A program made the translations under genes and the position numbers. Source: Pseudomonadota bacterium (lineage in GTDB: Bacteria > Myxococcota_A > UBA9042). Taken from it: a DNA stretch of 64,000 bases. Under the pieces are notes generated by a model. It saw only the letters and a list, made by a program, of their open reading frames with translations. It had not been told where the DNA came from and did not search any database. The DNA is taken from assembly GCA_041163625.1 (NCBI GenBank), contig JBEARB010000330.1, positions 10,194 to 74,193 on the forward strand, given 5' to 3'. The first letter of the stretch is position 1. Each line of letters begins with the position of its first letter. This document shows, piece after piece, positions 13,397 to 64,000 of this stretch.

Positions 13397-13605
13397 GATC
13401 CTGCCCCGCCAACGGGGACAATGACGCCGACGCTCGATGCGAGCGGCGACAGGGTTCGGTCGGTCCGACAGGACCGGCCGGCGTACGATCCGGCCTGGGC
13501 GCGGGAAGCGCAAGTCCGGGGGCGCCTCTTTGTGAAGCGGGGCGGGGGGATGGCCCCCCGCCCCGCATCTCGGCTCACGGGTGCGGCGATTGCCGCACCG
13601 TCAAG

Positions 13606-22539: not shown

Positions 22540-23468
22540 CCGAGGAAGCCTCCGAGGCGGAAGATCTTCATCACGACCTCGTCGAAGGGGGTGGCGACGT
22601 CGACCCGTAGCGCGCGGGCGCCGACCTCGCGCGCCGCGGATTCCACGCGCGCCGAGAGCTCCTCGAAGACCTCCCGGTAGGTGGCGACGATCTCGGGCGT
22701 GAGCCAGATCTCCTGCCGCTCGCCGGTCTCGACGTCGACCAGCGTCAGGTCGCCGTAGATCTCGGCGCGGAACAGCCGCTCGTCGGCCAGCTGCAGCACC
22801 ATCGGCTCGTACCCGCGGGCGGCGAGGTCGCGCAGGCCGTCGCCGAGGCCGTCCGGGTCGTAGAGGTCGGAGATCAGCACGACGAGCCCCCGCCGCGGCT
22901 TGAAGCGCAGGAAGTCGCGGATCGAGTCGTGGATCGCGGTGCGACCGGCGGGCTCGAGCGCCGAGAGGGTACGCAGGATGCGGAAGAGCTGCGCGCGGCC
23001 GCGCACCGGGCGCTCGGGGCGCGCGCGACCGTCCGCCATCGGCGCGACCGAGACACGGTCGAGGTTGCCGAGCGCGATGTAGGCGAGCGCGGCGGTGATC
23101 TGCAAGGCACGATCGAACAGGCTCGGTTCACCGGGCGGCGCCATCGCCATGGACGGGCTGCGGTCGAGCAGGAAATAGACCGAGAGGTCCTCTTCCTCCT
23201 CGTATTGGCGCAGGAGCATCCGTTTGGTGCGACCGTAGACCTTCCAATCGAGGTGGCGCAGGTCGTCGCCGGGGCTGTAGTCGCGATGGTCGGCGAACTC
23301 GATGCCGCCGCCGATCTTCTTGCTGCGCCGCGCCGCCCGCTGCCCCGAGGAGGCCATCCGGCGCGCGAGCAAGGTCAGGTGCTCGATGCGGCGCAGGAAC
23401 GCCGCGTCGAAGAGATCGTCGCGGATCCCGGCGTGCGCGCCCCCGGCGGCGGGCCGCGACTCAGCCAC
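22536..23468 (-). CDS. DUF58-domain protein (MoxR-associated)
   Basis: DUF58 signature (ADHRDYSPGDDLRHLDWKVYGRT). 8-nt overlap with the moxR stop. Confidence 0.8.
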   Translation of the reverse strand: MAESRPAAGGAHAGIRDDLFDAAFLRRIEHLTLLARRMASSGQRAARRSKKIGGGIEFADHRDYSPGDDLRHLDWKVYGRTKRMLLRQYEEEEDLSVYFLLDRSPSMAMAPPGEPSLFDRALQITAALAYIALGNLDRVSVAPMADGRARPERPVRGRAQLFRILRTLSALEPAGRTAIHDSIRDFLRFKPRRGLVVLISDLYDPDGLGDGLRDLAARGYEPMVLQLADERLFRAEIYGDLTLVDVETGERQEIWLTPEIVATYREVFEELSARVESAAREVGARALRVDVATPFDEVVMKIFRLGGFLG

Positions 23469-24507
23469 CGGCGACCTGCTTGCCGACCTCTTGCAGGATG
23501 GCGTCGAGGACCTTGTCGCTGGCGACGCCGTCGGCTTCGGCGTCGAAGTTCAGCAGCACGCGATGGCGCAGGACCGGGCGCGCGAGCGCCTGCACGTCTT
23601 CGCGCGCGGCGTTGGGGCGACCGTCGAAGAGCGCGCGCATCTTCGCGCCCAAGATCAGCGCCTGCACCGCACGCGGGCTCGCGCCGGCGCGCAGGTATTG
23701 GCGGGCGGCGTCGGCGCCACCGTGGGTGGCCTCGACCACACGAATGGCGAGGTCGACGACGTGGTGGGCGATCGGCACGCCGAGCGCCAGCCGCCGCACG
23801 GCCAGGATATCGTCGCCGTGCAAGATCGCGCCGATCTCGTGCTGCTCGGCCTGCAGCGTGCGCGCGACGATCTCGTGCAGGTCCTGCCGGCTCGGGAAGG
23901 GCACGTCGAGCTTGAACATGAAGCGGTCGAGCTGCGCCTCGGGCAACGGGTAGGTGCCTTCCATCTCCAGCGGGTTCTGCGTCGCCATCACGAAGAAGGG
24001 CTTGGGCAGTTGGAGCGTCTCGCGCCCGATGGTCACGCGGCCCTCGGCCATCGCCTCGAGCAACGCCGATTGGGTCTTGGGCGTGGCGCGGTTGACCTCG
24101 TCGGCCAGCAGCAAGTTGGTGAAGACCGGGCCCTTGCGGAGTTCCAGACCACGGCCGCCGCGGCCGTCCTCGGCCAGCATGTGCGTGCCGACGATATCGG
24201 TCGGCATCAGGTCCGGGGTGAACTGCACGCGCGAGAAGTCGAGATCGACCGCCGCGGCGAGCGTACGCACGAGCATGGTCTTGCCGACACCCGGTACGCC
24301 CTCGAGCAAGATGTGGCCGCCGCAGAACAGGCCGATCAGCGCCCCCTCGACCACGGCGTCCTGCCCGACGATGACCTCGCCGACACCGGCGCGCAGGGCG
24401 CCCAAGCGGTCCCGGACCCAGGCGAGCGCGTCGGCGAGGCGAGCCTCGTCGGCGAGCGCCGCTTCGATGTCGGGGCGCGCCCCTGTCGAATCCGAAGCCT
24501 TGGTCAT
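23461..24507 (-). CDS. MoxR-family AAA+ ATPase
   Basis: Start at MTKASDST; the ATG overlaps the upstream stop (ATGA). Walker A (GVPGVGKT), Walker B (LLADEVNRA) and the MoxR motif ATQNP. Confidence 0.85.
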   Translation of the reverse strand: MTKASDSTGARPDIEAALADEARLADALAWVRDRLGALRAGVGEVIVGQDAVVEGALIGLFCGGHILLEGVPGVGKTMLVRTLAAAVDLDFSRVQFTPDLMPTDIVGTHMLAEDGRGGRGLELRKGPVFTNLLLADEVNRATPKTQSALLEAMAEGRVTIGRETLQLPKPFFVMATQNPLEMEGTYPLPEAQLDRFMFKLDVPFPSRQDLHEIVARTLQAEQHEIGAILHGDDILAVRRLALGVPIAHHVVDLAIRVVEATHGGADAARQYLRAGASPRAVQALILGAKMRALFDGRPNAAREDVQALARPVLRHRVLLNFDAEADGVASDKVLDAILQEVGKQVAGG

Positions 24508-26828
24508 CGTGTGCTCCTCTGCGTTTGCGCCGCGCGCGGTCGGATCAGCTCGTAGTAGCGGCGAACCATCGCCTTGCGTCCCGGCGGCAGGGACTCCTTC
24601 TCGAGCATCTCCTGCGCTACTTCCGCATATTCCGAATAGACCTCGCGCCACCCGGTGCGGGCGAAGCCCTTGCGAGCCGCGTCGACGAAGACGTCCTTGG
24701 TGCTCGGCCCTTCGCCGTGCTTGCCGCGAACCTGCTCGGTCCGGGCCGTGCCCTTGCGGGCGCCCTTGCCCTCGAGGTCGCGGCCGTCCTCGTGGCCGTA
24801 GGTCTTGCCGCGCCCACCGTCGCCGCCGCCCTGCTGCTGGAGCTGTTGGCCATCGGCCATCTGCTGCATCCGGCGGTCGTCGGAGAGCTCGCCCTGGCCG
24901 AGCCGCGTGGAGCGCTTGCGGCCCGAGCCTCCGGGCTGCGAGGGGCCACCGGACTCGCCCTGGCCGGCGGCTTGCCGGCGCCGCGCGGCGGCGCGTTCCT
25001 TGGCGGCCGCCTCGGCAGCCGCTCGGCCCTGCTTGCCGGCGCCGTCGCGTGGCTCTCCGCGCTGGCCGGACTGCGCGTCGCGTCCCTCTTCCTCGCCTTG
25101 CTTTCCGCCGCCCTCCTCGCCGCGCTGGCCCTTGGACTGCTGACCGCGGGCTCGGTCGGCAAAGTCGCGGCGCTGCGAACGCCCGCGCTCGCCGGCGCGG
25201 CGGAGGGCTTGGCGCAGGTCGCGCAGCCGTCCGTCGCCGATCCGGCGCGCCTGGCGCTCGCGTTGGCCCTGGCCCTGTCGACGCATCTCCTGCGCCGCCC
25301 GCTGCATCTGCTGGCGGACCTGTCCGGCGAGCGCCTTGCGCTGCTGCTGGCGTCGCGCCTCGCCCTCGGCACCGCCGCCCTTCTGTCGATCGATGCGGCT
25401 ACGCTCCTGCTGCATCCGACGCATCTCGTCGGCCGCTTGGCGAGCACCGCGCTCGAGACGCTGCAGCTGCCGTCCGGCCCCGGCGACGTCGCCGTGCTCG
25501 CGGCGCAACGCGTCCATCGCCCGGCGGGCGTTGTGCAGTCGGCGGTTCTCGGCCGGGGTCAGGCCGCCCTGTTGCTGGCGCTTCTGCTCGAGCCGGCGAA
25601 TGCGATCGGCGAGTTGCTGGAACTGCTTGGGCACCTCCTTGGCCCCGAGCGCTTTGGCCAGCTTCTCCGCCGCCTTGACCCAACCCTCGAGCTCCTTGTC
25701 GCTCATGTCGCGGTCGGCGAGCTTCTCGAGCGCCTTGGCCATCAGACCGAGGTCGCCCTTCTTGGCGGCGCGCTCGAGTTCGTCGCGCGTGGCGCCCTCG
25801 GGGGCCGCCTCGATCGCCTTCTCGACCGCCTTGGAGAGCGCCTTCTGTACCGCCCGATCGCGATCACGCTCGGCCGCGGCGGCGGCCTCGCGCGAGACGG
25901 GCTGATTCGGATCGCCGCTGGGATCACCGCTGCGAGCCTGCTCGGGTGGCTCGGGGCGCTCGGCCTCGAGCTCCGCGAGCTTGGCGAGCGCTGCGCGGCG
26001 ATCGAGCTTGCCGCTCTCGACGTCCTCGAGGACGCCTTTGACCCGATGCAGCCACGCGCGGGTCGGTGCGTCATCGACCTGGGCGGCCACGTCGGCGATC
26101 AGCTCGGCGTCCGCGCGCAGCAACTCGAGGGCATCGGCGCCCAGCAGCTCGGCCGCGACGACGACGCCGGCGTGGCCTGGGGGTAGGTCGAGGAGCAGGC
26201 CGTCGGCCCGCTGGCCGTCGATGCGGTCGCCGAGGAGCCACACCTGCGGCACGACCAGCGCCAGCATCGCGGCGACGGCGCCGGCAACGACCCAGCCGAG
26301 CCCGGCAGGCCGCGGCATCGGCAGCAGCGCGACGAGATCGAGCCCGGCAGCGGCGGACTCGGCGTGTCGCGCTTGCAGCATGGCGAACGGATCGTCGCGC
26401 CCCTGGCGCGCCAAGTCGAGCGCCGTGCTGATGTGGTCACCGCCACCGACCCGCAGATCCAACGCTCCCGCAGCGGCCAACCAACCCGGTCGGCGCCCCA
26501 TCGCCCAGGCGACGCCGAGCAGGCCCGCGATCGCGAGCACCAGCGCGGCCCCCACATCCCAGGCAGCCGGCCACAGCCCTGCCCGGGCCGCGAGCGCCCA
26601 GCCCGCGTAGGCCAGCATGGCCGGGGCCGCGACGTACGCGAGGCGGCCCAGCGCGCCGGCCCACCAGAGCCGACGTCGGGCGCGGCGCACCACGTCGATC
26701 ACCGCCGAGACCCGCGCGCGGCGCGGTGCCGACAGATGGACGGGACGCAGCGTGGCGGGAAGTGGGGTGGTGGTGGCTCGGCTCAACGCGATCTCCGGGC
26801 CGACGCAGCCGGCGTGGGGGCAACCCAC
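24504..26828 (-). CDS. membrane protein with a long R/Q/E/G-rich charged low-complexity region (hypothetical)
   Basis: First gene of the Bat-like string. About 4 N-terminal TM helices. A ~450-aa charged low-complexity region (RRQQQRK..., QGQGQRERQARR...). A conserved-looking C-terminus (TGWREVYSEYAEVAQEMLEKE). Start uncertain. Confidence 0.5.
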   Translation of the reverse strand: MGCPHAGCVGPEIALSRATTTPLPATLRPVHLSAPRRARVSAVIDVVRRARRRLWWAGALGRLAYVAAPAMLAYAGWALAARAGLWPAAWDVGAALVLAIAGLLGVAWAMGRRPGWLAAAGALDLRVGGGDHISTALDLARQGRDDPFAMLQARHAESAAAGLDLVALLPMPRPAGLGWVVAGAVAAMLALVVPQVWLLGDRIDGQRADGLLLDLPPGHAGVVVAAELLGADALELLRADAELIADVAAQVDDAPTRAWLHRVKGVLEDVESGKLDRRAALAKLAELEAERPEPPEQARSGDPSGDPNQPVSREAAAAAERDRDRAVQKALSKAVEKAIEAAPEGATRDELERAAKKGDLGLMAKALEKLADRDMSDKELEGWVKAAEKLAKALGAKEVPKQFQQLADRIRRLEQKRQQQGGLTPAENRRLHNARRAMDALRREHGDVAGAGRQLQRLERGARQAADEMRRMQQERSRIDRQKGGGAEGEARRQQQRKALAGQVRQQMQRAAQEMRRQGQGQRERQARRIGDGRLRDLRQALRRAGERGRSQRRDFADRARGQQSKGQRGEEGGGKQGEEEGRDAQSGQRGEPRDGAGKQGRAAAEAAAKERAAARRRQAAGQGESGGPSQPGGSGRKRSTRLGQGELSDDRRMQQMADGQQLQQQGGGDGGRGKTYGHEDGRDLEGKGARKGTARTEQVRGKHGEGPSTKDVFVDAARKGFARTGWREVYSEYAEVAQEMLEKESLPPGRKAMVRRYYELIRPRAAQTQRSTR

Positions 26829-27787: not shown

Positions 27788-29140
27788 TCAGGCCTCGCCG
27801 GGCGGTCGCTCCAGTCCGAGCTTCCGAACCACGTACTCGAGGCTCTTGCGATGCAACCCGGTGGCTCGTGCCGCCGCCGACACGTTCCAGCCGTGATGCT
27901 CGAGGGCGCGTTCCCAATAGGCACGCTCGAATGCATCGACCAGCCGAGCCTTGGCATCCTTGAAGGGCAAGTCGAAGCGGACCGGCACGCCGCCCTCTCC
28001 GTGGACGATCGGGGCGTCGGCGGTCTGCACGTCGACCTCGAGCTCGCGACCGGACGAGAGCACGGCGGCCCGCTCGATGGCGTTGCGCAGCTCGCGGATA
28101 TTGCCGGGCCAGGGGTGGCTCTGCAGGCGCTGCATCATCTCGTAGCCGATGGTCATCGGTCGCGTCTTGCCGTCGCGCCGGGCCGCCTCCTCGAGGAAAT
28201 GCTGCGCGAGCATCGGGATGTCCTCGGTGCGGCGCCGCAGCGGCGGCAGCGCCACGCGGACGACGTTCAGCCGCCAGTAGAGGTCTTCGCGGAAGGAGCC
28301 TTCCTTGACCATCTGTCCGAGATCGCGATTGGTCGCGGCGACGATGCGCACATCGACCCGGCGCCGATCGTTGCTGCCGACCGGGCGAACCTCGTGCTTC
28401 TCGAGCGCGCGCAGGAGCTTCGGCTGCAGGTCGAGGTCGAGCTCGCCGATCTCGTCGAGGAAGAGCGTCCCGCCGTCGGCCTCGGCCATCGCGCCGACGC
28501 GCGAGGCGACCGCGCCGGTGAACGCGCCGCGGAGATGCCCGAAGAGCTCGCTCTCGACGAGATTCGGTTGCACGGCCGAGCAGTCGAAGACGACGAACGG
28601 TCCTGCAGCGCGACGGGAGTGGCGGTGCAGCGCCTCGGCGACCAACTCCTTGCCCGTCCCCGACTCGCCCTCGATCAGGACCGTGACCTCGGTCGGAGCG
28701 ACCTTGCCGAGGTGAGCGAAAATCTCGCGCATCGCCGGCGCGTCGCCGAGCAAGTCGCCGAAGCGACGCTCACGTGAGAGCGCCACTTCGTGGGTCTCGG
28801 CCAGGGGTTCGACGAGCAGCTCGACCTGACCGACGCGCAGGGTGGTGCGATCGGTGAGCAGCCCCTCGACCAGGCGGCATCCGCCCATCCAGGTGCCGTT
28901 CTTGCTGCCGAGATCGCGGATTCGGAAGCCGCCGCGCTCGCCCTCGATCTTGAGGTGGTTGCGGGAGACCGACGAGTCCCCCACGACCACGTCGTTATCT
29001 GGCGCGGAGCCGACGTAGAGCAGGCGGCGCTCGAAGACCGTCGGCGCTGTGCCACGGCCACCGACCACGCTGATGCGCAGTCGCGGCAGAGTCAGCCGTT
29101 CGGGCAGAGCTGAGGTCAGGGTGCGGGTGGCGTCGTGCAT
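27788..29140 (-). CDS. sigma-54-dependent transcriptional activator with N-terminal FHA domain
   Basis: Start at MHDATRT. FHA motifs (YVGSAPDNDVVVGDSSVSRNHLKIE...GSKNGTWM). Sigma-54 AAA+ domain (GESGTGKE, GAFTGA, FLDEIGEL, ESELFGH). C-terminal Fis-type HTH. 450 aa. Confidence 0.85.
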   Translation of the reverse strand: MHDATRTLTSALPERLTLPRLRISVVGGRGTAPTVFERRLLYVGSAPDNDVVVGDSSVSRNHLKIEGERGGFRIRDLGSKNGTWMGGCRLVEGLLTDRTTLRVGQVELLVEPLAETHEVALSRERRFGDLLGDAPAMREIFAHLGKVAPTEVTVLIEGESGTGKELVAEALHRHSRRAAGPFVVFDCSAVQPNLVESELFGHLRGAFTGAVASRVGAMAEADGGTLFLDEIGELDLDLQPKLLRALEKHEVRPVGSNDRRRVDVRIVAATNRDLGQMVKEGSFREDLYWRLNVVRVALPPLRRRTEDIPMLAQHFLEEAARRDGKTRPMTIGYEMMQRLQSHPWPGNIRELRNAIERAAVLSSGRELEVDVQTADAPIVHGEGGVPVRFDLPFKDAKARLVDAFERAYWERALEHHGWNVSAAARATGLHRKSLEYVVRKLGLERPPGEA

Positions 29141-29169: not shown

Positions 29170-30960
29170 TCAGGGCAAGCCGCGGACCAGTCGAAAACCG
29201 GGCAGCCGACGCTGTTCGCCGGCCTTGAGGACGAGCTTGCGCGTCTCCTCGCGGCCGCTGATTGGGTCGCGGACCCGCAGCGTGCGCTCGCCCGCCGCGA
29301 TACCGAGCGCGTGCACGCCGTCCGAGCCGCTGCCGCCGGCGACCTTGCGGCCATCGACGTACACCTCGGCGTCGGCCGGCACGACGCGGAAGCGGACCTC
29401 GGCGCGGGCCACGCGAGCGGCACCGCGCCGCCCGGCGCTCGGCGCGGCCGGGCGCTCGGGCTCGCCGGCGCCAGCGGCGTCGGCCGAGGCGATGGCGCCG
29501 GCATCGGCGGCAGCAGCGGTCGCCGCGGCATCGACCGCGACCGGCTCGGCGAGCGCGGCACCGGCGTCCGGCTCGAGGGCGACGCGCGTCGCGGCCGCAG
29601 GCGCGCTGGTGATCTCGGCGATCGACACGGCGCCGGCATCGGGGTCGACCGCGACGCCGGCATCGGGCGCCGGCGCGGCGACGGCGTCGGCGAGTGCGGC
29701 GACGACGCCGTCGGCCCCGTCGGCCCCGGGCGCGGAAGCGGACGGCCCGCCGCCGCGCGTCCCCAGCCACCAGCCAACGGTGCCGGCGAGCAACAAGGCG
29801 ATGCTGGCCGCGAACAGCGTCCGTCGACGCACTTCGATGGTGCGCGCGCCGCGCAGGGCGGTCGTGTCGGGTCCGAGCGCCGGTGCGGGGCCCGCCGGCA
29901 AGGGCGAGAGCGCCGCCGCCAACTCCGGCGCGTCGGACGCCTTGGGCAACGCCAAACCGGGCAGACTGACGGTGCCGGTCGCCTCACCGGCCCCGCCGCT
30001 GCCGCCGTCGAGTAGGCCGGCGAGCGTGGCGTCGAACCCCTGCGCCTCGGCGTCCAGGCGCTCGAAGGCGGGTGCGAGCCGCTCGGCCAGGGAGCGTTCG
30101 GGGGTGGCGGCGCCCCGCTCGACCAAGATCTGCGCGACGGCCTCGGCGACCTCGGCGGCGTCGGCCGGACGGGCTTCGGGCGAGCGCGCCACCATGCGCC
30201 CGATCAGATCACGGGTCGGCGCGCTGACGCCGTTGTGCTCGAGCGCGACAAGGCGCGCGGGCAGGTTGGCCCACGCCGTCTCCAAGCCGGCCGCATCGAT
30301 CACCTCGAGCGCGCGCTCGGCGGTGAGCAACTCGAAGGCGCAAAGCCCGAGCGAAAAGAGGTCTGCGCGCGGATCGGCCTTCGCTGGATCGAGGTGCTCC
30401 GGCGCCATGTAGGGCAGCTTGCCGCGCAGCGAACCGGCCTCGCGCCGCGCCATCATCGCCGTACGGGCGACGCCAAAATCGACCAGCTTCACCAGCCCGT
30501 CGCGACGGACCATCAGGTTCGACGGCGTCACGTCGTAGTGCACGATGCCGAGGGGCTTGCCGTCCGGACCGTGGTGGGTCGCGGCGTGGTGCAGCGCGGC
30601 GGCGGCGGCGGCCAGCACGGCCAGCACCGAGACTTCGTCGAGCGGCCGGCCGAGGGCACGGAAGAGGGCGCGCAGATCGTGGCCGACGACCATCTCGATC
30701 GCCAGGAACCAGGTCCCGTCCTCGACGCCGAGGTCCAAGATCTGCGCGATGTTCGGATGATCCAGCGCCTCGAGCAGCCGGCCCTCGGCGACCAGCAGCT
30801 CGACCAGGCGTTGATCCGCCGCCAGTTCGGGCCGCAGCGTCTTGATCACCAGCCGCTTCGCGAAGCCGGCGGCACCCGGCGCTTCCGCCAGCCAGACCTC
30901 GCCCATGCCTCCGGTCGCGAGGTGACGGACGAGCCGATAGCGACCGAAGGCGCGGCTCAG
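29170..30960 (-). CDS. Hanks-type Ser/Thr protein kinase with TM segment and Ala-rich C-terminal region
   Basis: Kinase subdomains (LATGGMGEVW, AIEMVVGHDL, HYDVTPSNLM, DFGVAR, PYMAPE). Probable CTG start at 30958-30960 with GGAGG 6 nt upstream. No in-frame ATG exists upstream of the Gly loop outside the neighbouring gene. Confidence 0.75.
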   Translation of the reverse strand: MSRAFGRYRLVRHLATGGMGEVWLAEAPGAAGFAKRLVIKTLRPELAADQRLVELLVAEGRLLEALDHPNIAQILDLGVEDGTWFLAIEMVVGHDLRALFRALGRPLDEVSVLAVLAAAAAALHHAATHHGPDGKPLGIVHYDVTPSNLMVRRDGLVKLVDFGVARTAMMARREAGSLRGKLPYMAPEHLDPAKADPRADLFSLGLCAFELLTAERALEVIDAAGLETAWANLPARLVALEHNGVSAPTRDLIGRMVARSPEARPADAAEVAEAVAQILVERGAATPERSLAERLAPAFERLDAEAQGFDATLAGLLDGGSGGAGEATGTVSLPGLALPKASDAPELAAALSPLPAGPAPALGPDTTALRGARTIEVRRRTLFAASIALLLAGTVGWWLGTRGGGPSASAPGADGADGVVAALADAVAAPAPDAGVAVDPDAGAVSIAEITSAPAAATRVALEPDAGAALAEPVAVDAAATAAAADAGAIASADAAGAGEPERPAAPSAGRRGAARVARAEVRFRVVPADAEVYVDGRKVAGGSGSDGVHALGIAAGERTLRVRDPISGREETRKLVLKAGEQRRLPGFRLVRGLP

Positions 30961-30979
30961 GAGTGGCCTCCGCGCCCGC

Positions 30980-31837
30980 TCAGGCGACCGCGAGTCGGGC
31001 CGTGAGCCAGTCTCGCAGCGCAGCGAGCGGCCGGTCGCGCTCGCCGGCGGGCTCGTTGAAGAGCTCGTGGTAGAAGCCCTCGAAGACCTCGATGGTGCGG
31101 TCATCGGCGGCGACGCTGGCGAAATAGCGCTGGCCGACCTCGGGGTCGACGACCTGGTCGCCCGTCCCGATCAACGCGAGCAGCGGCACGTCGACGCGGA
31201 GCGGTGCCGCCAGGACATGCTGCTGCGCGGCCAGGAATTCGGCCCCCCAGCGGGTGGTGCCGGCGCCGAAGATCGCGGGATCCGACTCGTAGTCGCGGAC
31301 CGAAGCCGGGTCGCGGCTGATGTGCGACGCCGGGATGCCGACCGGCAACGCGACCGTCGGCAGCAGGCGCGAGAGCGTCTTCGCGGCGACGACCTTCCAG
31401 CCCGGAACCTCGACCGATGCGGCGAGCGCGGGATTCGAGAGCACGATTCCCGCCACCGGCAACGCGCGCTCACGCAAGGCATACGAGACCACCAAGCCCC
31501 CCTGCGAGTGCCCGAGCAGGTAGGGCACACGACCGGCCTCGGCGCGGACATGGTCGATGACCTGTCGCAGATCGGCAGCGTAGTCGGCGAAGGCGTCGAC
31601 GTGACCGCGCCGGCCACCCGAGGCACCGTGGCCACGCGCGTCGTACAGGAAGGTGTCGATGCCGGCGGCCGACATCGCCTCGACGAGGTTGCCGTACCGC
31701 CCCATATGCTCGGCGAAGCCGTGATGGACGACCAAGGTCGCGGCCGAGTCGGCGACGCGGTTCCAACGCCAAGCGAGACGCAAGCCGTCGCGGGCGACGA
31801 GTCGCCCTTCACGGGTTTCGATCGAGGTGGTGCTCAT
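30980..31837 (-). CDS. alpha/beta hydrolase (lysophospholipase / monoacylglycerol-lipase-like)
   Basis: Start at MSTTSIETREG with GGAG 5 nt upstream. Nucleophile elbow GHSQGG. HGxxE and a C-terminal FYHELFNE motif. Confidence 0.75.
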   Translation of the reverse strand: MSTTSIETREGRLVARDGLRLAWRWNRVADSAATLVVHHGFAEHMGRYGNLVEAMSAAGIDTFLYDARGHGASGGRRGHVDAFADYAADLRQVIDHVRAEAGRVPYLLGHSQGGLVVSYALRERALPVAGIVLSNPALAASVEVPGWKVVAAKTLSRLLPTVALPVGIPASHISRDPASVRDYESDPAIFGAGTTRWGAEFLAAQQHVLAAPLRVDVPLLALIGTGDQVVDPEVGQRYFASVAADDRTIEVFEGFYHELFNEPAGERDRPLAALRDWLTARLAVA

Positions 31838-31983
31838 GGGCGCTCCGCATGGCCCGGGTCCGGGGCAGCGGGAGGGTAGGACGCGACCGAGCCCGCGGCA
31901 AGACGCGTTGCGGGGGGCCGCCGCATGTTGCAGGATCGCGGACGCAGCCGGCAGCATCCGGCACAAGCCCACGGATTCGCCTC

Positions 31984-32982
31984 ATGCTGACCCGCTCGCC
32001 CCGCGGCCCGATCGGTCGATTCGCCTTCCTCACGATGGTCCTCGCCTTCGCGCAGGGCTGCGGGTTCTTCCAGGTCAGCGAGCAGACGGTCTCCTGCGAT
32101 CTGCTCACTCAATCGCAGTGCGCGCCCGACGAGGCGTGCGTCGCCCCGAACAACCCGCAATGCGCGGCGGCCGGCAGCAAGGCCGTCGGCGAGGCCTGCG
32201 TCACGCTCAACGACTGCAATCGGGACGGCATCTGCGTCGGGACCGACAACGAGCGCTTCTGCCGCCAACGCTGCGACCTCAACAGCCCGTCGTGTGGCGA
32301 CGGCGAGACCTGCGTCACCGGCACGAACGGAGCCAACCCGTCGGGATTCGGCGTCTGCGTCCCGTTGGCCTGCGATCCGGTGCAGCAGACCGGCTGCAAG
32401 GAGGGTCTCCGCTGCATCCCGGGGCCGGTGCCGCAGTGCAGCGGCGTCGTCGGCGTCGCCATCGAGGGCTCGAGTTGCGCGAGCAGCGAGAGCTGCAAGA
32501 CGGGCTTGGTCTGCGCCCAGTCGGGCACCGACGCCAACGGCAAACCCAAGAGCGTGTGCATCTCGATCTGCGACGCGGCGGCGTCGCCGACGACCTGTGG
32601 CGAGGACTACGTCTGCCAGGCGCTGCTCGACGGCAACGGCTTCAGCCTACCGGCGAATCAGGGCACCTGCGTGCTCGAGCACTGCAATGCGCTCACCGAT
32701 CTGGGCTGCGAGGACAGCCAGAAGTGCTACGCGGCGCCCAAGCCGGTCTGCGGCTTCCCGGGCAACAACACGCTCGGTCAGGCCTGCGAGAAGGTGATCG
32801 ACTGCGGCATCGGCTTGGTGTGCTTCCAGACGGCCGACGGGCAGCGCCTCTGCCGCGCGAAGTGCGATACGTCCGGCGCCAACGCCGATTTTGCGTGTCC
32901 GAGCGGCGAGGCGTGCTTCGCCATCAAGGACAGCACCGGCTCCGAGTTGCCGAATGACGTCGGCTATTGCCGCTTGCCATGA
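31984..32982 (+). CDS. cysteine-rich repeat lipoprotein (myxobacterial Cys-rich repeat type)
   Basis: Lipobox (FLTMVLAFAQGC). Six or seven ~45-aa units, each with 4 Cys (C..DE.C..... C...G.C pattern). Confidence 0.65.
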   Translation: MLTRSPRGPIGRFAFLTMVLAFAQGCGFFQVSEQTVSCDLLTQSQCAPDEACVAPNNPQCAAAGSKAVGEACVTLNDCNRDGICVGTDNERFCRQRCDLNSPSCGDGETCVTGTNGANPSGFGVCVPLACDPVQQTGCKEGLRCIPGPVPQCSGVVGVAIEGSSCASSESCKTGLVCAQSGTDANGKPKSVCISICDAAASPTTCGEDYVCQALLDGNGFSLPANQGTCVLEHCNALTDLGCEDSQKCYAAPKPVCGFPGNNTLGQACEKVIDCGIGLVCFQTADGQRLCRAKCDTSGANADFACPSGEACFAIKDSTGSELPNDVGYCRLP

Positions 32983-34448: not shown

Positions 34449-35855
34449 CTATTTCGGCACGGCTGCGGGCTTTCCGGGCTTGTTCGAGGGCAGCTTGGCG
34501 GGCACGCCGGCGGGCGCGTCGGCCGTCGGCGGCGCAGCGGCCGCTGGCGTCGGCTCGGGCTCCGGCGCCGCCGCGTTCTCCTTGCCGAGGTCGGGCGATG
34601 CCGGCTCGACCGGCTCGGCAGCCGCCGCCGGCGGCGGAGCCGGCTGTCCCTCAGCGGCGGCCTCGGCCGGCGCCTCCGCGGCAGGGTTGGGCGGCGGCTC
34701 CTGCTCGAGCGCGAACAGCCCGGCGAGCTTGCGCTGACCGATCATCGCCTCCCAGCGGCCACGTCCGAGTTTGGCGTGGTCGGCGTCGAGGCGAATCCAA
34801 TCCGGTCCCGCGCCGCCCTGCAGGTGCACGTGGCGACCGTCGATCACGCCGACCAGCTTGACCGGCCCCGGGAAGGCCGGCGCCTTCTTCTTCGCGGGCG
34901 CCAGGGTCAGCGTGCCCTTGGCGTCGCCCTTGTCGACCTGCACTTCGATGCGACCGGAGAGCGGTCCCGACAGCGTGCCGCGATAGCGGCCGTTGGCGCG
35001 CTCGGTGGCGGCGACGGCGCGGGGATCGGGGCAGCGGCTCGAGCGCGCCTTGGCAACCTTGGCCGTGACGTCGTCGAACCGCGCCATCTCCAGTCCGAAC
35101 TGCGAGAAGCCGCGCGCGTCCATGCCGAAACGCCGAAAGATCTCGGCGGCGGCGCGGGCGTGAGCGACGGTATCGACCGGCCCGCCGGGCTTGCCGATCT
35201 GCTCACCGAGGCACGCGACATCGACGAACGCGCTGACATAGGCCTCGATCCGCTCGGCGGCGACCAACCCCAGCTTCGGCGAGAAGTGGCAGGTAGCGAC
35301 GGCGTCGTCCACCGCCCGCACGACCTTCGGGTAGGCCTGGGCCTTCTCCACGGCGGTCACGTATCGGGCGAGGAAGGGATCGTCGTCGCGCGGCGCGACG
35401 CGACCGCCGGGGGTGTACACGGCCGCCGGAATCCCGGTCTCGGTCGCCTGATTTGCCGGATCGACCGGGGCGATCTTGCCGAGCTCGGCGGCGCGATCTG
35501 CGGCCCCGACGTCACGGGCGACGCCCGCCAGGGCGAGCTTGCGGGCCCGCGCCACGGCCTCGGGGTCCTGCATCGGTCGGCCCGCCAGTTGATCGACCGC
35601 CAGCGTGCGGGCGTCCGCCTCGGAGGCACCGAAGCGCTGCGCGCAGCGCGCGAGCGTGTGCGCGGCCACGAAAGCGTCGACGGGGATACCCAGCTCCGGC
35701 TCGGCCTCGGCTTCGGGCGCGGCGGCCTCGGTCGGCGCCGCCGCCTCGGGCTTCTCGGCTTCGGTCGGCTTCGGCGCATCCTTGCCACAGGCAGGGAAAG
35801 CGACGGTCGCGAGCGAGAGAACCGTCGCGCGGAACTTGCGGGAGAGCCGGGCCAT
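34449..35855 (-). CDS. hypothetical lipoprotein with Pro/Ala/Glu-rich C-terminal tail
   Basis: Start at MARLSRKFRATVLSLATVAFPAC with GGAGGA 7 nt upstream. 468 aa. The upstream part of the track ORF is a GC shadow. Confidence 0.6.
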   Translation of the reverse strand: MARLSRKFRATVLSLATVAFPACGKDAPKPTEAEKPEAAAPTEAAAPEAEAEPELGIPVDAFVAAHTLARCAQRFGASEADARTLAVDQLAGRPMQDPEAVARARKLALAGVARDVGAADRAAELGKIAPVDPANQATETGIPAAVYTPGGRVAPRDDDPFLARYVTAVEKAQAYPKVVRAVDDAVATCHFSPKLGLVAAERIEAYVSAFVDVACLGEQIGKPGGPVDTVAHARAAAEIFRRFGMDARGFSQFGLEMARFDDVTAKVAKARSSRCPDPRAVAATERANGRYRGTLSGPLSGRIEVQVDKGDAKGTLTLAPAKKKAPAFPGPVKLVGVIDGRHVHLQGGAGPDWIRLDADHAKLGRGRWEAMIGQRKLAGLFALEQEPPPNPAAEAPAEAAAEGQPAPPPAAAAEPVEPASPDLGKENAAAPEPEPTPAAAAPPTADAPAGVPAKLPSNKPGKPAAVPK

Positions 35856-36035
35856 GGAGATCCTCCGGACGTTCGCCCCGATCGGGCGAGCGGAGCGTAT
35901 CGAGGACGTGCGCGAGGGGAAGTGCCAGCCGTGCTGACGACACGCGAACCGGAGCGAGCATGCCACCCGGTGCCGGGCCGCGTAAAGCCGACCGGCCACG
36001 GGCGCCGAGCGACGGTCGCGGCGGTCGGCTGGCTG

Positions 36036-36413
36036 ATGTCTGCGCTGCTCGTGGGCTGCGCGTCCACGCCCCTCGAACCACTGCAGGTCGAACCGCTCGG
36101 TCGCCACACCGTCGAGGTCGGAGAGGCTTGGATCTGGCCGCTCACGATTCGCGGAGCCGAGCTCCCGATGCAGGTCGAGGTCGTCCAGGGCCCGGCATCG
36201 CTTCAGGTGATGACGCCGACGACCACGCCGACGCTCGGCTGGCAGCCGACCGTCCTGGATCTCGCCCCGACACCGGTCGGCGTCCCCCGCGCCCCGGGCG
36301 CGGAACGCAGCGTCGAAGTCCGCGTGCGCGATGCATCCGGCCGCAGCGCGTCGGCGAGCGGGACGGTGCGCGCGGTGCCGGCCAGCGTGGCGTTCGAGCC
36401 GGCGGTGCCGTAG
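36036..36413 (+). CDS. small putative lipoprotein (Ig-like?)
   Basis: MSALLVGCASTP.... It follows a 180-bp divergent intergenic region and ends 10 nt before the next gene. The N-region is weak, so the call is uncertain. Confidence 0.35.
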   Translation: MSALLVGCASTPLEPLQVEPLGRHTVEVGEAWIWPLTIRGAELPMQVEVVQGPASLQVMTPTTTPTLGWQPTVLDLAPTPVGVPRAPGAERSVEVRVRDASGRSASASGTVRAVPASVAFEPAVP

Positions 36414-36422
36414 AGTCCGCGC

Positions 36423-37244
36423 ATGACGCCACCCGCCCGCGCCATCGCCACGCCTACGCTGCCCCGTCGCGACGCCCTCCGACGCCTCGTCGGACTCGGC
36501 GCGTGGCTCGCTTGGCCGCATGCCGCAGCAGCCGCCGAGCGCACCGGACCGTCGAGCGTGCTTCGCCTGGGCAACCTCCGGATCAGCGAGCGCGATCACG
36601 ACCTGCGCAGCGGGCTGGACAATCTCGCCGCCGAGGTCCGCATGCGCACCAGCATCGAGACGGCACACCGCTCGCTGCGCGTGGATCTGCGCAGCGACAA
36701 CGTCTTCGAGGCGCCGGTCCTGTTCTGGGCACCGACCGACGGCGCTCGCCCGAACGAGTCCGAGCTCGGGCGACTGCGCGAGCACCTCTCGGCGGGCGGA
36801 CTGCTCTGGATCGACGACGCGTCGGCAAGCGGCCCGTCGGCCACGGTCGACGCGGCCGTACGCGAGCTGGTCGCGCGCCTGTTCGGTCGTCCGCTGGTCG
36901 CGGTGCCGCCGCGTGACGTGGTGTTCCGGACCTTCTACCGCTTGGACGAACCGGTCGGTCGGCGGGCGGACGTCAAGGCGCTGGAAGGGCTCCGAGTCGG
37001 TCGCCGGTGGGCGATCCTCTACGGGCGCGACGACCTGCTCGGTGCGTTCCGGCGCGCCGCGTCCGGCGGTCCGGCAGCGCCGGTGGTGCCAGGCGGGGAA
37101 GCACAACGGGAGATGGCCTATCGGCTCGGCATCAACCTGCTGATGTACGCCCTCTGCCTGGACTACAAGGACGATCACACCCACGTGCAGACCCTGCTGC
37201 GGCGCCGCCGCGGACGCCCGGGAGGCGGTCGGCGTGCTCCCTGA
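36423..37244 (+). CDS. Tat-secreted protein, DUF4159-like
   Basis: Twin-arginine signal (RRDALRRLVGLGAWLAWPHAAAA). The conserved core (LLWIDDASASG...ILYGRDDLLGAF...LMYALCLDYKDD) resembles DUF4159, which is often found beside MoxR/VWA genes. Confidence 0.55.
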   Translation: MTPPARAIATPTLPRRDALRRLVGLGAWLAWPHAAAAAERTGPSSVLRLGNLRISERDHDLRSGLDNLAAEVRMRTSIETAHRSLRVDLRSDNVFEAPVLFWAPTDGARPNESELGRLREHLSAGGLLWIDDASASGPSATVDAAVRELVARLFGRPLVAVPPRDVVFRTFYRLDEPVGRRADVKALEGLRVGRRWAILYGRDDLLGAFRRAASGGPAAPVVPGGEAQREMAYRLGINLLMYALCLDYKDDHTHVQTLLRRRRGRPGGGRRAP

Positions 37245-39453
37245 GCTCTCTCAACTGGAATGGACGCTCGATTGGGGACCGCTCGGCCTGCTCGCGGCCG
37301 CGACGCTGGGCGGTGCCGGCGTCTTGCTGGCCTGGCGCAACGCGCGCGGATTGCCGATCGGCCGCCGCGCGGTGCTGCTCGGCCTGCGCCTCGGGACGGT
37401 GCTCGGCTTGCTCGCGGCGATCTTGCAGCCGACCTGGGTCGAGCTACGTCCACGCCCGGACGACCGCAAGGTCGCGGTCCTCGTCGACGCGAGCCGCTCG
37501 ATGCGCCCGGGCGGGGACGACAGCCGGGCGCGCGCCGCGTCGGCCGCGGCGGCCGCCCTGGCGGCGCGGGTGCCGACGCGGCGCTTCGCGCTGGAGCCGG
37601 AGCCACGCGCCCTGGGCGACGGCGAATCCGCCGGCAGCGCCGCCGGCAGCACCGATCTGCTCGCCGCCCTGCGCGCGCTCGGGGAGGGCAGCCGGCCGGC
37701 CGGGATGACCTCGGTGGTGGTGGTCTCCGACGGCCGCGATCACGGTCCGCTCGGCGCCGGCGAGGGCAATACGGCCCTGGACGACGCGGTCTTGGCGCTC
37801 GGCGTCCCGGTACACACCGTGGCCATCGGCGATACCGACCGCCTGTCGGACGTCGTGGTCGGTGAAGTGCGCGCGTCTCGGTTCGCGTTGGCCCGCAATC
37901 CGCTGCCGATCGAGGTCGACCTGGATCTGGGCCGTTTCGCGGGTGGCTCGGGCAACCTCGAGCTGGTGTTGGAGCTCGACGGGGAGCCGATGCACAGCGA
38001 GCGGGTGACGCTCGAGGGCAGCGCACGGCGCAGCGTGGCGCTGGAGCTGACCCCGACGCAGACGGGTCCACACGTGCTGACGGTCCGCGCCGTCCCGCTA
38101 CCCGACGAGCTGACGGTCGCGAACAACCGCATCCACGTGCCGATCGAGGTGGTCCGCGACCGCGTTCGGGTGATGCACCTCGCGGGCCGGCCCTCACCGG
38201 ACACCCGTTTCCTGCGCTCGCTGCTGCGCGAGACCGAGAACGTGGATCTGGTGTCGTTCTACATCATGATCGGCAGGGCGGCCCGCGTCTTCGTCGATCC
38301 GGACGACACCACGCTCATCCCCTTCCCCACGACGCAGCTGTTCGAAGAGGCGCTGGCCGACTTCGACGTCGTGATCTTCCACGATTTCGCGTTCGCCCAA
38401 TACGGCATCGACCGCTTCGTCCCCACGCGCCTCGGTCCATGGATCGAACGCGGCGGCGCCTTCCTCAGCGTCGGCGGTCGGGGTTCGCTCGCCGCGGGCG
38501 GCTACGAAGCCACGAGCATCTGGCCGTGGATGCCGGTCGCGCTCGACAGCGCCGGCGCCGAGGCCTGGCGTGAGCAGACCTTCACGCCACAGCGCACCGA
38601 TATCGGCGCCGCCCACCCGATCACCGCGCTGCGCTCGACACCGCAGGAGAGCGAGGCGGCGTGGGCGGCGAGCACGCTGCCGGGCCACAACCTCCGCTTG
38701 CTGCCCCGTTCGGGTGATCCGGTGCTGCTGCAAGGCCCCGACGACGCCCCGCTGCTCGCTGTCGGGCAGCGGGGCAAGGGTCGAGTCGCGACGCTCGCGA
38801 CCGACGGCACCTGGACCTGGGCCTTCCCGACCGGGGCCGGACGGAGCCGGGTCGACGCGCGCGCCGACTACCACGCGCTGTGGAAGAACCTCCTCGGCTG
38901 GCTGCTGCGCGATCCGGCCTACGCCGAGCTGCGGATCCGCGCGCCGCGTGAGGCGGTGGCACCGGGAACGCCCTTCGAGATCCGCGTCGAGCTCCGGGGA
39001 CGCACGCGAGAGACCCGCGCCGGGGTCGAAATCACGCTCTCCGACCGGCCGCTGCCCGACGGAGCGCCGAGCCAATGGACGGGGCGCACCGGGCCGGACG
39101 GCGTGGCGCTGTTCACCTTGCCGGCCGGCCGATCCGGCCCGCATCGACTGCAAGCACGCGCCGAGGGCAGCGTCGACGTGCCGGCGGAAGCCGCCTACGC
39201 CGTCGCCGAGGGTGCTCCGGAGGATCTCGACCTGCGGCCCGACCCCGCCCTGCTCGGCCGCCTGGCCCGCGCCGGCGGCGGCCAGAGCGTGCACGACGTC
39301 GGCGAGCTCGACTCGGACGCCCTGCTCGGCCCGCGCGACCTCGGCCACGACCGCGTGCGCCACGAGCTCTGGGGCCACCCGCTGGTCGCCGCCCTGCTGC
39401 TCGCCCTGCTGCTCGCCGAGTGGTGGCTGAGGCGGCGCTGGGGTCTGGTCTGA
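37234..39453 (+). CDS. BatA-like VWA-domain membrane protein (second copy)
   Basis: The GTG start overlaps the upstream gene by 11 nt. N-terminal double-TM. VWA MIDAS (VAVLVDASRSM). Class-I glutamine-amidotransferase-like central region. C-terminal TM (LVAALLLALLLAEWWLRRRW). Confidence 0.7.
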   Translation: MLPELSQLEWTLDWGPLGLLAAATLGGAGVLLAWRNARGLPIGRRAVLLGLRLGTVLGLLAAILQPTWVELRPRPDDRKVAVLVDASRSMRPGGDDSRARAASAAAAALAARVPTRRFALEPEPRALGDGESAGSAAGSTDLLAALRALGEGSRPAGMTSVVVVSDGRDHGPLGAGEGNTALDDAVLALGVPVHTVAIGDTDRLSDVVVGEVRASRFALARNPLPIEVDLDLGRFAGGSGNLELVLELDGEPMHSERVTLEGSARRSVALELTPTQTGPHVLTVRAVPLPDELTVANNRIHVPIEVVRDRVRVMHLAGRPSPDTRFLRSLLRETENVDLVSFYIMIGRAARVFVDPDDTTLIPFPTTQLFEEALADFDVVIFHDFAFAQYGIDRFVPTRLGPWIERGGAFLSVGGRGSLAAGGYEATSIWPWMPVALDSAGAEAWREQTFTPQRTDIGAAHPITALRSTPQESEAAWAASTLPGHNLRLLPRSGDPVLLQGPDDAPLLAVGQRGKGRVATLATDGTWTWAFPTGAGRSRVDARADYHALWKNLLGWLLRDPAYAELRIRAPREAVAPGTPFEIRVELRGRTRETRAGVEITLSDRPLPDGAPSQWTGRTGPDGVALFTLPAGRSGPHRLQARAEGSVDVPAEAAYAVAEGAPEDLDLRPDPALLGRLARAGGGQSVHDVGELDSDALLGPRDLGHDRVRHELWGHPLVAALLLALLLAEWWLRRRWGLV

Positions 39454-39522
39454 GTCGGTAGCGACAACGGCCGGGTCCGGGCATGCTCGCCATCGCGCCC
39501 GTGGCCGGCGCGAGGAGGCAGG

Positions 39523-40749
39523 ATGTCCGAATTCGACGCCGGGATGCGAGCGCGAGGCAACGGCCCCGCTGGGTGCGGGTGGTTGGCGAGCGCTGCGGCG
39601 CTGATCGCGTTGCTCGGCCCCGGGCAAGCCGCCGCGAGCGCCGGCCTGGACAGCCTGGACTGCCCGACCATCGACCAGACGACGTGCCCCGCCCTGGCAC
39701 GCGCCCTGGAGCGCCCCGACGTCACGGTGGCCGAGCTGGGCGCCTGGCTGGCCCACGCGCCGGCCGACGGCATCAAGCTGCGGCGAGCCGCCGCGGTCCT
39801 CGGCATCATCGGCGGCGACACGGCCCGCGGGCACCTGGAGCAGGCCGCCAAGCGCCACGCCGCAGGTGCATTCGCGGTCGATTTGCAGGCCGCCGCCGCG
39901 CGCGCCGGATCGACGTCGGCGCGCGACGGCTTGGTGCAATCTGCGCGCTCCGGGGACACGCGCATCCGCCTGGTGGCGCTCTCGACGCTCGCCTCGCTGC
40001 GGCATCCGGAGGCGGCGGCGCTGGCCCGGGCAGCGCTCGACGCCACCGACGCACGTCTGGCGGCGACCGCCGCGCGCGCCCTGGGCAAGGTCGGAACCGG
40101 CGAAGACGGCGCCCGCCTGCTCGCGTTGGTCCGCGGCGCCGACACGCCGGCCTCGGTGCGCCGCGCCGCGCTCTGGGCGATGGCCCGCCTGAAGGACACC
40201 AGCGGCATGCTGGAAGCGACGCAGCTGGTCACGCACCCGGCCGCGTCGGTCGCCAACGCGGCGCTGGAGCTTCTCGCCGTGGCCCCTCCGGTCTGGTCCT
40301 CGCCCGCGATTCGCTGGGCCCTCGAGCAACCGGCACTGCAGCAGGCGGCTGCGTTGCCAGCCGCGGCGATGAAGGACGAGACGGTCTCCGGCGTCGCGCT
40401 GCGCGCCGCGGTGGTCCCGGGCGTGCCGCTGGCGCGCTACCGGGCGCTCATCGACGCCGCCGCCAGCGCGCCGGTCGCCGGCGCCGCCGCCCGCCTGCTC
40501 GATCACGCCGAGACGCTCGACGAGGCCGGCAAGGTCGCCACGCTGCGCACGGTCGCGCGGATGAACGACCGAAGCGTGGTACCGCGGCTGGTCGAGAGCC
40601 TCGTGAGCGCGCGCTCGCAGGTTGCCAATTTCACGGTCTACGCGCTAGAAGCGCTCACGGGCGAGCGCCTCGGCGGCGACCTGCAGGCCTGGCGCGCGTG
40701 GCTGCGAGGCAGCAAGCCGGCGCGACCGGACGCCCCGCCCAGCCCCTGA
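39523..40749 (+). CDS. secreted HEAT-repeat (PBS-lyase-like) protein
   Basis: GGAGG SD and a signal peptide. Repeated HEAT-like units ([44 protein letters not shown]...). Confidence 0.6.
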
Positions 40750-40763
40750 CTCGGAGGTCCCCA

Positions 40764-41435
40764 ATGGCCTTGGATCGCAACCAGATCGCAGCCCGCGTGG
40801 CGCGTGAGCTGCGCGACGGCTTCTACGTCAACCTCGGCATCGGCATCCCGACGCTCGTGGCGAACTTCATCCCCGACGGCATGGACGTGGTGCTGCAGAG
40901 CGAGAACGGCATGCTCGGCATCGGCCCCTTCCCGTACGAGGGCGAGGAAGACCCGGACCTGATCAATGCCGGCAAGCAGACGATCACCGAGATCCCCGGC
41001 TCGGTCTACTTCAGCTCCGCCGAGTCGTTCGCGATGATCCGCGGCGGCCACGTCGACCTGACCGTGCTCGGCGCGATGGAGGTCAGCAGCGGCGGCGACA
41101 TCGCCAACTGGATGATCCCCGGCAAGGTGGTCAAGGGCATGGGCGGCGCGATGGATCTGGTCGCCGGCGCGCGCCGCGTCGTCGTCACCATGACCCACAC
41201 CGACAAGGCCGGAAATCCGAAGCTCCTGCAAGCGTGCACCCTGCCGCTGACCGGCAAAGCCTGCGTGCATCGCGTGGTGACCGACCTCGCCGTCATCGAC
41301 ATCGAGCCGCGCGGCTTCGTGCTCCGCGAGCTCGCCCCGGGCGTCGACGAGGCCGAGATCCGGGCGAAGACCGGCGCGCCGCTGCACATCGACGGCCCGG
41401 TCGGCAGCATGGTCGGGGAGCCCGTCGCCGGATGA
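40764..41435 (+). CDS. scoB: succinyl-CoA:3-ketoacid CoA transferase subunit B
   Basis: Catalytic-Glu motif ([13 protein letters not shown]) and GMGGAMDLV. 223 aa. Confidence 0.85.

Positions 41436-47210: not shown

Positions 47211-64000
<16,790 letters not shown>

Follow-up and report, generated by a model that had tools for sequence, protein, structure and literature searches.

Within the 64,000-nt stretch of contig JBEARB010000330.1 analyzed here (the window), a plus-strand gene for an exported DUF4159 protein runs directly into the gene for a 739-aa inner-membrane protein, here called G739. This translationally coupled two-gene cassette, DUF4159 followed by G739, is the conserved unit of what had been described, from the sequence of the window, as a four-gene module. 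By sequence comparison, the homolog of the cassette is the distal half of an alphaproteobacterial operon with the order MoxR, DUF58, BatA_N/DUF4159, and GATase1_like, and in Myxococcota this distal half is physically detached from MoxR-DUF58. The explanation that we favor, with some reserve, is that the cassette is a detached distal half of a MoxR operon and works as a periplasmic scaffold for envelope maintenance.

The cassette and its relatives

The window has a GC content of 72% up to ~46 kb, so its lists of open reading frames (ORFs) are dominated by shadow frames, and real genes were told from shadow ORFs by third-position GC (GC3) together with inspection of start codons. This analysis confirmed the plus-strand string of four genes put forward in the original prediction, and resolved an antisense 911-aa ORF that overlaps the start of the module (34449..37184) as a shadow ORF. 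The four genes are:

35970 (GTG)..36413, plus strand, small lipoprotein, 147 aa (GC3, candidate starts, lipobox)
36423..37244, plus strand, exported DUF4159 protein, core gene 1, 273 aa (PF13709)
37234..39453, plus strand, G739 inner-membrane protein, core gene 2, 739 aa (structure model, conserved metal-binding site)
39523..40749, plus strand, exported HEAT-repeat protein, 408 aa (HEAT_2)

As had been claimed, the first three genes overlap or nearly abut, with a 9-nt gap between the lipoprotein and DUF4159 genes and an 11-nt overlap between those for DUF4159 and G739; a 69-nt gap precedes the HEAT gene. A scan for sigma-70 promoters and intrinsic terminators between 34 and 42 kb returned no sites, so the operon boundaries are placed by gene spacing alone. 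A sigma-54 promoter (TGGCAC-N5-TTGC) was also looked for because a sigma-54 activator gene is nearby; this candidate was rejected: the motif occurs 65 times in the window where 58.7 matches would be expected, and the intergenic region upstream of the module (35856-35969) has no convincing site. Barring a spurious CpeY-lyase match to the HEAT protein, none of the four proteins matched an NCBIfam family.

Relatives were taken from a scan of one genome per species, which gave at least 572, and the best 80 were analyzed; neighbors were counted by tblastn with the window proteins over these 80 loci, 50 of which have full 10-kb flanks. All 80 belong to Myxococcota (Myxococcales, Haliangiales, Kofleriaceae, Polyangiales, Sandaracinus, Bradymonadales, and Myxococcus, whose pair is at locus L086). 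DUF4159 is followed immediately, on the same strand, by a G739 homolog in 76 of the 80 species loci; of the other four, one is a truncated contig, and in three, of Sandaracinaceae type, the partner is truly missing. Gene calls for eight loci (L001, L003, and L005-L010) show the two genes of the pair overlapping by up to 29 nt or separated by up to 33 nt. MoxR or DUF58 is found in a single locus among the 80, and within 10 kb in one of the 50 loci with full flanks. The absence of a MoxR of its own, originally noted for this module, is therefore true here, but it is the rule in Myxococcota rather than a peculiarity of the window. Pfam labels show a bare pair amid unrelated genes in L008 (Anaeromyxobacteraceae) and in L009 and L010 (Bradymonadia), and all-versus-all clustering of ORFs from the 80 loci found no universal third gene beside the pair, only clade-specific neighbors such as unknown 430-aa and 447-aa proteins in Kofleriaceae/Haliangiales. 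Synteny across Myxococcota, which had been proposed as a check, thus upholds the adjacency of the pair; a link to a MoxR operon through the regulatory island is seen only in the clade of the window.

A tblastn search with the DUF4159 protein against plasmids and chromids matched only Azospirillum and Paracoccus, and the loci of Azospirillum brasilense (L093) and Paracoccus denitrificans (L094) were annotated in this analysis. The Azospirillum operon runs from MoxR (AAA_3, 198 bits) through DUF58 (119 bits) and a 913-aa fusion to a 703-aa G739 homolog. The 913-aa protein combines an N-terminal BatA_N domain (69 bits) with a C-terminal DUF4159 domain (184 bits), unlike the separate DUF4159 gene of the window, and the 703-aa protein shares 31% identity with G739 over 512 aa (E 2e-42) and matches GATase1_like at 26.9 bits. 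In Paracoccus, MoxR is followed by a 658-aa BatA_N protein, a DUF4159 gene that is a separate ORF inside the MoxR operon (320 aa, with its own signal peptide), and a 758-aa G739 homolog; tblastn with the DUF58 protein of the window gave no DUF58 match at this locus. The DUF4159 protein of the window is 35% (E 4e-30) and 28% identical to its alphaproteobacterial homologs. Homology to the third and fourth genes of these operons identifies the window module with the distal half of an MRP-MoxR operon of four genes. The proposal of a split ancestral cluster is backed in kind, because homologs of both core proteins sit behind MoxR in alphaproteobacterial operons, but the unit comprises two genes. 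The operonic link of the pair with MoxR-DUF58 could be either ancestral or parallel.

The two core proteins

The DUF4159 domain was upheld by Pfam: the PF13709 match, at 122.3 bits (cutoff 25.9), spans profile positions 11-202 of 202. The fold matches that of the solved family member 4I66 and resembles a class-I glutamine amidotransferase (GATase), in a form predicted to be non-catalytic, with an elbow that reads IDD. The C-terminal tail has the consensus YALCLDYKDDHxHV..LLRxRRG, in which Y242, A243, C245-K249, D251, and H254 are invariant. At its other end, the protein carries a signal peptide containing LPRRDAL, which had been read as a twin-arginine signal. A twin-arginine motif is present in the window protein and in the two homologs nearest to it (RRDAL, RRQLL, and RRALL; the latter two proteins read DRRQLL and SRRALL, against a sought motif of S/T-R-R-x-F-L-K) and is absent from the next ones. 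Signal-type N-termini occur in 115 of 120 DUF4159 homologs, whereas a twin-arginine motif abutting the h-region (RRx-hydrophobic-hydrophobic) occurs in 26 of those 115, and no family for signals of the twin-arginine translocation (Tat) system was matched in Pfam (E <= 0.01) or NCBIfam (E <= 0.1) scans. These proportions suggest that export is a trait of the family and that Tat export could be no more than a recent trait of the window subclade.

G739 matches GATase1_like (PF07090) at 26.7 bits, against a cutoff of 27, and VWA_CoxE weakly; an identical database protein (P0121) and many homologs carry a precomputed PF07090 label. The structure model (pLDDT, the predicted local distance difference test, 85.7) places transmembrane (TM) segments at residues 15-36 (TM1), 42-63 (TM2), and 716-735 (TM3), and between them predicts a Rossmann/VWA domain (66-197), a beta-sandwich (208-307), a GATase1-like domain with the fold of the PF07090 representative 3RHT (311-557), an Ig-like domain (566-657), and a small alpha/beta unit before TM3. 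A VWA domain is thus recognizable by hidden Markov model (HMM) or fold. Among 30 homologs, D85, S87, S89, D166, and D169 of its metal ion-dependent adhesion site (MIDAS) are invariant and T140 is conserved in at least 90%, and the MIDAS residues (DxSxS) are retained in the Azospirillum and Paracoccus proteins. The C-terminus carries an invariant EWxLRRRxG. In the same 30 homologs the GATase elbow reads GGAFxxxGG without an invariant Cys; for a Cys-His-Glu triad, no invariant nucleophile Cys was found at the elbow of either core protein. An invariant His-Pro (H461-P462) in the G739 family has no Glu after it.

The N-terminus of G739 consists of two TM helices joined by a short basic loop (RNARGLPIGRR), followed by a large region predicted to be extracytoplasmic. 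Residues 67-715 are predicted to lie in the periplasm, from the acidic N-terminus, the four Arg of the TM1-TM2 loop, and the RRR after TM3. For BB0173, a BatA-like protein, the VWA domain was experimentally shown to be periplasmic (PMC5700661). The description of G739 as another BatA-like protein with double TM, VWA, and GATase-like parts holds for the architecture and for a profile-level match to the BatA-like protein of the window MoxR operon (hhalign E 2.6e-8, prob. 95%, covering TM2 through the sandwich), but not for the BatA_N and TIGR02226 models, which fail on G739; BatA_N scores 68-69 bits on the alphaproteobacterial third-gene proteins. A BLAST match joins G739 to a 952-aa protein of the same operon (27% identity over ~350-390 aa, E 1e-7), which is its distant paralog. 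G739 is nonetheless far closer to the alphaproteobacterial fourth gene (E 2e-42) than to this 952-aa protein, and it is not a recent paralog of either window protein.

The MoxR operon, the regulatory island, and accessory genes

The minus-strand MoxR operon of the window has the gene content originally described (Pfam), and its stated distance of about 10 kb is close to that found: from the start of the module it is 9.1 kb to the operon's first gene and 11.3 kb to moxR. The features on this side of the cassette are:

17768..20626, minus strand, 952-aa protein with VWA and GATase1_like domains, final gene of the MoxR operon (VWA 99.7 bits, GATase1_like 42 bits)
20539..22539, minus strand, BatA-like membrane VWA protein, 666 aa (VWA_2 55 bits)
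22536..23468, minus strand, DUF58 protein, canonical MoxR partner (PF01882 111 bits)
23461..24651, minus strand, MoxR (MRP-type AAA_3) ATPase (AAA_3 207 bits)
24504..26828, minus strand, 774-aa protein, no family, first gene of the MoxR operon
~27788..29140, minus strand, FHA/sigma-54 activator (Pfam)
29170..31104, minus strand, Ser/Thr kinase (Pfam)
30980..31972, minus strand, Hydrolase_4 (Pfam)
34449..35855, minus strand, 468-aa lipoprotein gene diverging from the module

In agreement with the original description, Pfam found no ATPase, DUF58, or TPR gene within the module string, and neither Pfam nor tblastn of both proteins against the whole window found a second MoxR or DUF58. The true start of MoxR is probably ~60 codons downstream of 24651 (orthologs have 323-337 aa). 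BatA_N scores 17.4 bits on the 666-aa BatA-like protein, below cutoff. The 774-aa protein matches nothing in Pfam, NCBIfam, or PADLOC; its family is very narrow, with 15 database clusters, and its homologs invariably adjoin MoxR on the upstream side. In another lineage (L006), DUF4175 and a TPR/Peptidase_MA_2 protein occupy this position.

Clade synteny was traced by walking out from homologs of the 774-aa protein (P774). Hydrolase_4, a Ser/Thr kinase, and an FHA-sigma-54 activator form an island trio, behind which lie two tiny ORFs (of ~54 aa and of 78-138 aa). The trio diverges from the pair in 20 of the 80 loci (L011-L029 and L079; also in L091 and L092), at DUF4159 identities of 43-82%. 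The clade order reads DUF4159 / lipoprotein, hydrolase, kinase, activator, small genes, (SLT), 774-aa protein, MoxR, DUF58, BatA-like, VWA/GATase1-like; SLT denotes a lytic transglycosylase of ~900-1100 aa inserted in some island loci. This order persists at P774 marker identities as low as 42%, with the MoxR operon 10-12 kb off. The conserved synteny spans ~25 kb and includes flanking radical-SAM and uvrB genes, which the window shares. Because these flanks are kept too, the linkage of pair and MoxR operon may be inherited gene order, that is, general synteny rather than selection for coupling. The suggested rearrangement around a regulatory island therefore describes an arrangement that exists in the 20-locus clade, but it is confined there and the flanking genes are equally conserved. 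Several clade contigs (L012, L014, L022, L028, and L079) were deposited as metagenome-assembled genomes of 'uncultured Enterobacteriaceae bacterium' or 'Klebsiella pneumoniae', and the source protein of the window is labeled 'Pseudomonadota bacterium'; taxonomy labels in such deposits are unreliable. Between the hydrolase and the divergent 468-aa lipoprotein lie two plus-strand genes kept in the closest relatives only, for a 377-aa protein of no family (31849-32982) and, next to it, a DUF4403 protein (32967-34433).

The small lipoprotein has a real lipobox, but the start at ATG 36036 that was first assigned fits less well than GTG 35970. From the GTG, the lipobox LLVG/C follows VAAVGWLMSAL at the end of a 30-residue signal; the ATG would leave 7 residues before the lipobox Cys (MSALLVG/C). 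The normal signal length and the 135-157 aa of homologs favor the GTG, and the ATG is probably internal. The protein matches no Pfam or NCBIfam family. Homologs lie upstream of DUF4159 in 11 of the 80 loci, several of them with a conserved motif PLxxLQVxPLGxHxV; the lipobox is present in those of L003, L013, L017, L022, and L029 and was not found in all homologs. The secreted HEAT-repeat protein was identified correctly, with HEAT_2 (PF13646) at 37 bits against a cutoff of 27.7 and a signal-like N-terminus that its homologs keep along with a conserved N-terminal Cys motif. These homologs occur in five of the 80 loci and do not always adjoin the pair, the gene standing after a DUF2330 gene in L012 and after an M1 peptidase in L022. 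It is not rigidly tied to the pair, since in L003, a 60%-identity relative, a DUF2330 gene (616 aa, 13251-15101) intervenes between the G739 homolog and the HEAT gene. The closest relative, L001, has the same four-gene order as the window. Outside the regulatory-island loci (n = 60), lipoprotein and HEAT genes are both absent save in L030, and they are also absent from the alphaproteobacterial operons. The G739 homolog of 13 clade members is followed by a gene for a fusion of M1 aminopeptidase with C-terminal HEAT repeats (~860 aa), and then by a beta-lactamase-family gene (loci L015-L028; e.g., 12937-15852 in L015), at the position where the window carries the stand-alone HEAT protein; derivation of the latter from the C-terminal part of the fusion was rejected, as L022 has both genes. 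Lipoprotein and HEAT protein are lineage-specific periplasmic neighbors, not core components, and the membership of the HEAT protein in the module is doubtful. Of the module as first drawn, what is conserved is the pair.

Other neighbors vary with lineage. A gene for ApbE, a flavin transferase, diverges from DUF4159 in ~14 loci outside the island clade (including L034, L038, L042, L043, L062, L072, L074, L083, L085, and L088), accompanied by citrate synthase and a Zn-ribbon/TPR protein; it was rejected as a functional lead because it travels with unrelated housekeeping genes, and the association is probably local synteny. Directly 3′ of the HEAT gene in the window is a CoA_trans gene (~40760-41435, plus strand), then manC, a phosphomannomutase gene, and gatCAB. 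A further CoA_trans gene lies ~28 kb away on the opposite strand (11900-12697, minus), and the two genes may encode subunits A and B of a single CoA transferase. A single ORF of 5461 aa (47211-63596, minus strand) occupies a region of markedly lower GC (63-67%, vs. 71-75% in most of the rest); besides ~29 Cu-binding_MopE repeats, its product contains a C-type lectin domain and a beta-propeller of the PQQ_2/BamB-like kind, and it has a 6190-aa counterpart at the same place in L001.

Competing explanations and known systems

In the explanation that we favor, the N-terminal TM hairpin and the C-terminal TM helix would hold G739 in the inner membrane with its bulk in the periplasm, where its MIDAS site would capture an acidic residue of the DUF4159 protein, possibly in the invariant YKDDHxH tail. 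The product of such capture would be a periplasmic scaffold, tethered to the membrane, with a role in envelope maintenance, and a MIDAS-mediated complex of this kind would be the most likely function of the pair. The cytoplasmic MoxR-DUF58, 11 kb away, may act on the pair in trans, e.g., before or during export; the reported MoxR1-dependent Tat export of RipA in M. tuberculosis is a lead from precedent and not evidence (PMC4810496). Several points weigh against this explanation. A cytoplasmic AAA+ ATPase has no direct reach to a periplasmic VWA domain, and because that domain is predicted to be periplasmic, one MoxR serving both modules, as had been suggested, is topologically awkward. Neither MoxR nor DUF58 lies within 10 kb in 49 of the 50 Myxococcota loci with full flanks, so any dependence on MoxR may have been lost. 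Physical interaction of the DUF4159 protein with G739 is deduced from gene coupling only, and DUF4159 stands without an adjoining partner in the Sandaracinaceae-type loci L074, L078, and L083. G739 matches neither BatA_N (PF07584; Pfam, E <= 0.01) nor TIGR02226 (NCBIfam, E <= 0.1). The Azospirillum and Paracoccus operons are probably of the RL3499-RL3502 type of Rhizobium leguminosarum, an equation made on gene content (MoxR, DUF58, and two large membrane proteins). To our knowledge, there is no experiment on record for any member of the DUF4159/G739 pair.

The main competitor, which we regard as possible but clearly less probable, is that the pair is a fully autonomous periplasmic module without AAA+ input and the nearby MoxR operon an independent system. 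It draws on the rarity of MoxR/DUF58 near the pair (1/50), on the complete Bat-like set that the window MoxR operon already has in its own BatA-like and VWA/GATase1-like proteins, and on the predicted periplasmic location of the pair, which save for TM segments and short tails would lie beyond a cytoplasmic ATPase (PMC5700661). However, the homologous pair is operonic with MoxR in two alphaproteobacterial genera, the window clade keeps the MoxR operon 10-12 kb away down to 42% P774 identity, and most genomes may carry MoxR elsewhere. A related and more speculative proposal, to which we give somewhat less credence still, would make the periplasmic half (DUF4159 and the 2TM-VWA-GATase1-like protein) and the cytoplasmic half (MoxR and DUF58) separable machines: Myxococcota would run the periplasmic half alone as a MIDAS-driven scaffold, with control by the kinase/FHA-sigma-54 island added in the window clade and Tat export in the closest relatives. 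If this were true, myxobacteria would be a natural experiment on what the AAA+ half contributes.

That lipoprotein and HEAT protein are obligatory subunits of a four-gene operon, the model implicit in the original prediction, is improbable. The short 9-nt and 69-nt junctions, the order shared with L001, the export signals on all four products, and the M1-peptidase-HEAT fusion after G739 in 13 clade members would fit it, but the HEAT gene is found in 5/80 and the lipoprotein gene in 11/80 loci, other genes intervene in L012 and L022, and both extras are missing from the 60 island-less loci save L030 and from the alphaproteobacterial operons. We think it very unlikely that the pair is an active periplasmic enzyme (an amidase, peptidase, or glutaminase), even though both proteins have a class-I GATase fold, homologs are named "glutamine amidotransferase" in databases, and H461-P462 is invariant in the G739 family. 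GATases have an HPE motif, of which H461-P462 may be a counterpart. Yet no Glu follows H461-P462, neither elbow (GGAFxxxGG in G739, IDD in DUF4159) has an invariant Cys/Ser nucleophile, the closest folds (3RHT, 2GK3, ThuA-like, IFT52-N, and OST48) form a non-catalytic branch, and the Pfam clan placement of the DUF4159 and GATase1_like families was made by structure only (PMC4702930). Hardly credible is a MoxR-vWA biological-conflict (defense) system: MoxR has a secondary bpMoxR match (43 bits), and VWA and Ser/Thr kinase/FHA genes are nearby, but AAA_3 of the MRP type is by far its best match (207 bits), PADLOC gave only weak P-loop matches on the module and operon proteins, and the order of the genes, set amid housekeeping genes, is stable and conserved by vertical descent.

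MoxR operons of the MRP type that also encode BatA-like membrane proteins occur widely, and their mechanism is obscure; how a cytoplasmic AAA+ ATPase relates to periplasm-facing VWA domains is a standing puzzle. Against this background, a DUF4159 protein and a GATase1_like membrane protein, which rank among the least studied parts of such operons, are tightly paired across phyla and retain a metal-binding site, and a whole phylum keeps the pair away from MoxR, which offers a genetic handle, as the pair and moxR are separable targets in the tractable Myxococcus. Nothing known is overturned; the proteins are already annotated in databases, and the value of the finding is thus organizational. In the literature searched, just one paper names DUF4159 or GATase1_like, families that are annotated but unstudied.

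Among solved structures, the nearest non-catalytic GATase-fold domains are 3RHT (the GATase1-like protein of Planctomyces limnophilus), 2GK3 (STM3548), ThuA-like proteins, IFT52-N, and OST48; these are isolated domains or parts of unrelated assemblies, and none has a DUF4159 partner or a VWA/TM framework. The DUF4159 member 4I66 (Hoch_4089 of Haliangium ochraceum) is a structural-genomics entry titled 'uncharacterized protein' with no functional annotation; its crystal chain ends at ...YALCLD and so is without the conserved YKDDHxH...RRG tail. The Bat (Bacteroides aerotolerance) operon comprises MoxR, DUF58, and BatA-BatE, with related loci in Borrelia (BB0170-0176) and Leptospira. Its BatA and BatB are short (~330 aa) and, unlike G739, without GATase1-like and Ig-like domains; Bat operons are without DUF4159, whereas the window module is without the TPR proteins BatC and BatE. 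The module also differs from a Bat-type operon in not being contiguous with MoxR/DUF58, the nearest MoxR being 11.3 kb off on the other strand.

The RL3499-RL3502 genes of R. leguminosarum, reportedly described by Vanderlinde et al. in 2011 in the Journal of Bacteriology (193:2684), are said to form a broadly conserved operon. RL3499 is described as important for membrane integrity and morphology (PMC3893208), RL3501 as a membrane protein with a growth defect on TY medium (PMC4255674), and disruption of the operon as affecting membrane integrity, morphology, and growth on complex medium (PMC3893208, PMC4255674, PMC5118466). The window pair differs from the alphaproteobacterial MRP-MoxR operons of Azospirillum and Paracoccus in lying 11 kb from MoxR-DUF58 on the opposite strand, and most Myxococcota have no MoxR within 10 kb. 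It resembles them in having both core homologs in the same order with tight junctions, and in a G739 protein that shares with its alphaproteobacterial homologs a 2-TM hairpin, a VWA domain with MIDAS, a GATase1-like domain, and a C-terminal TM helix.

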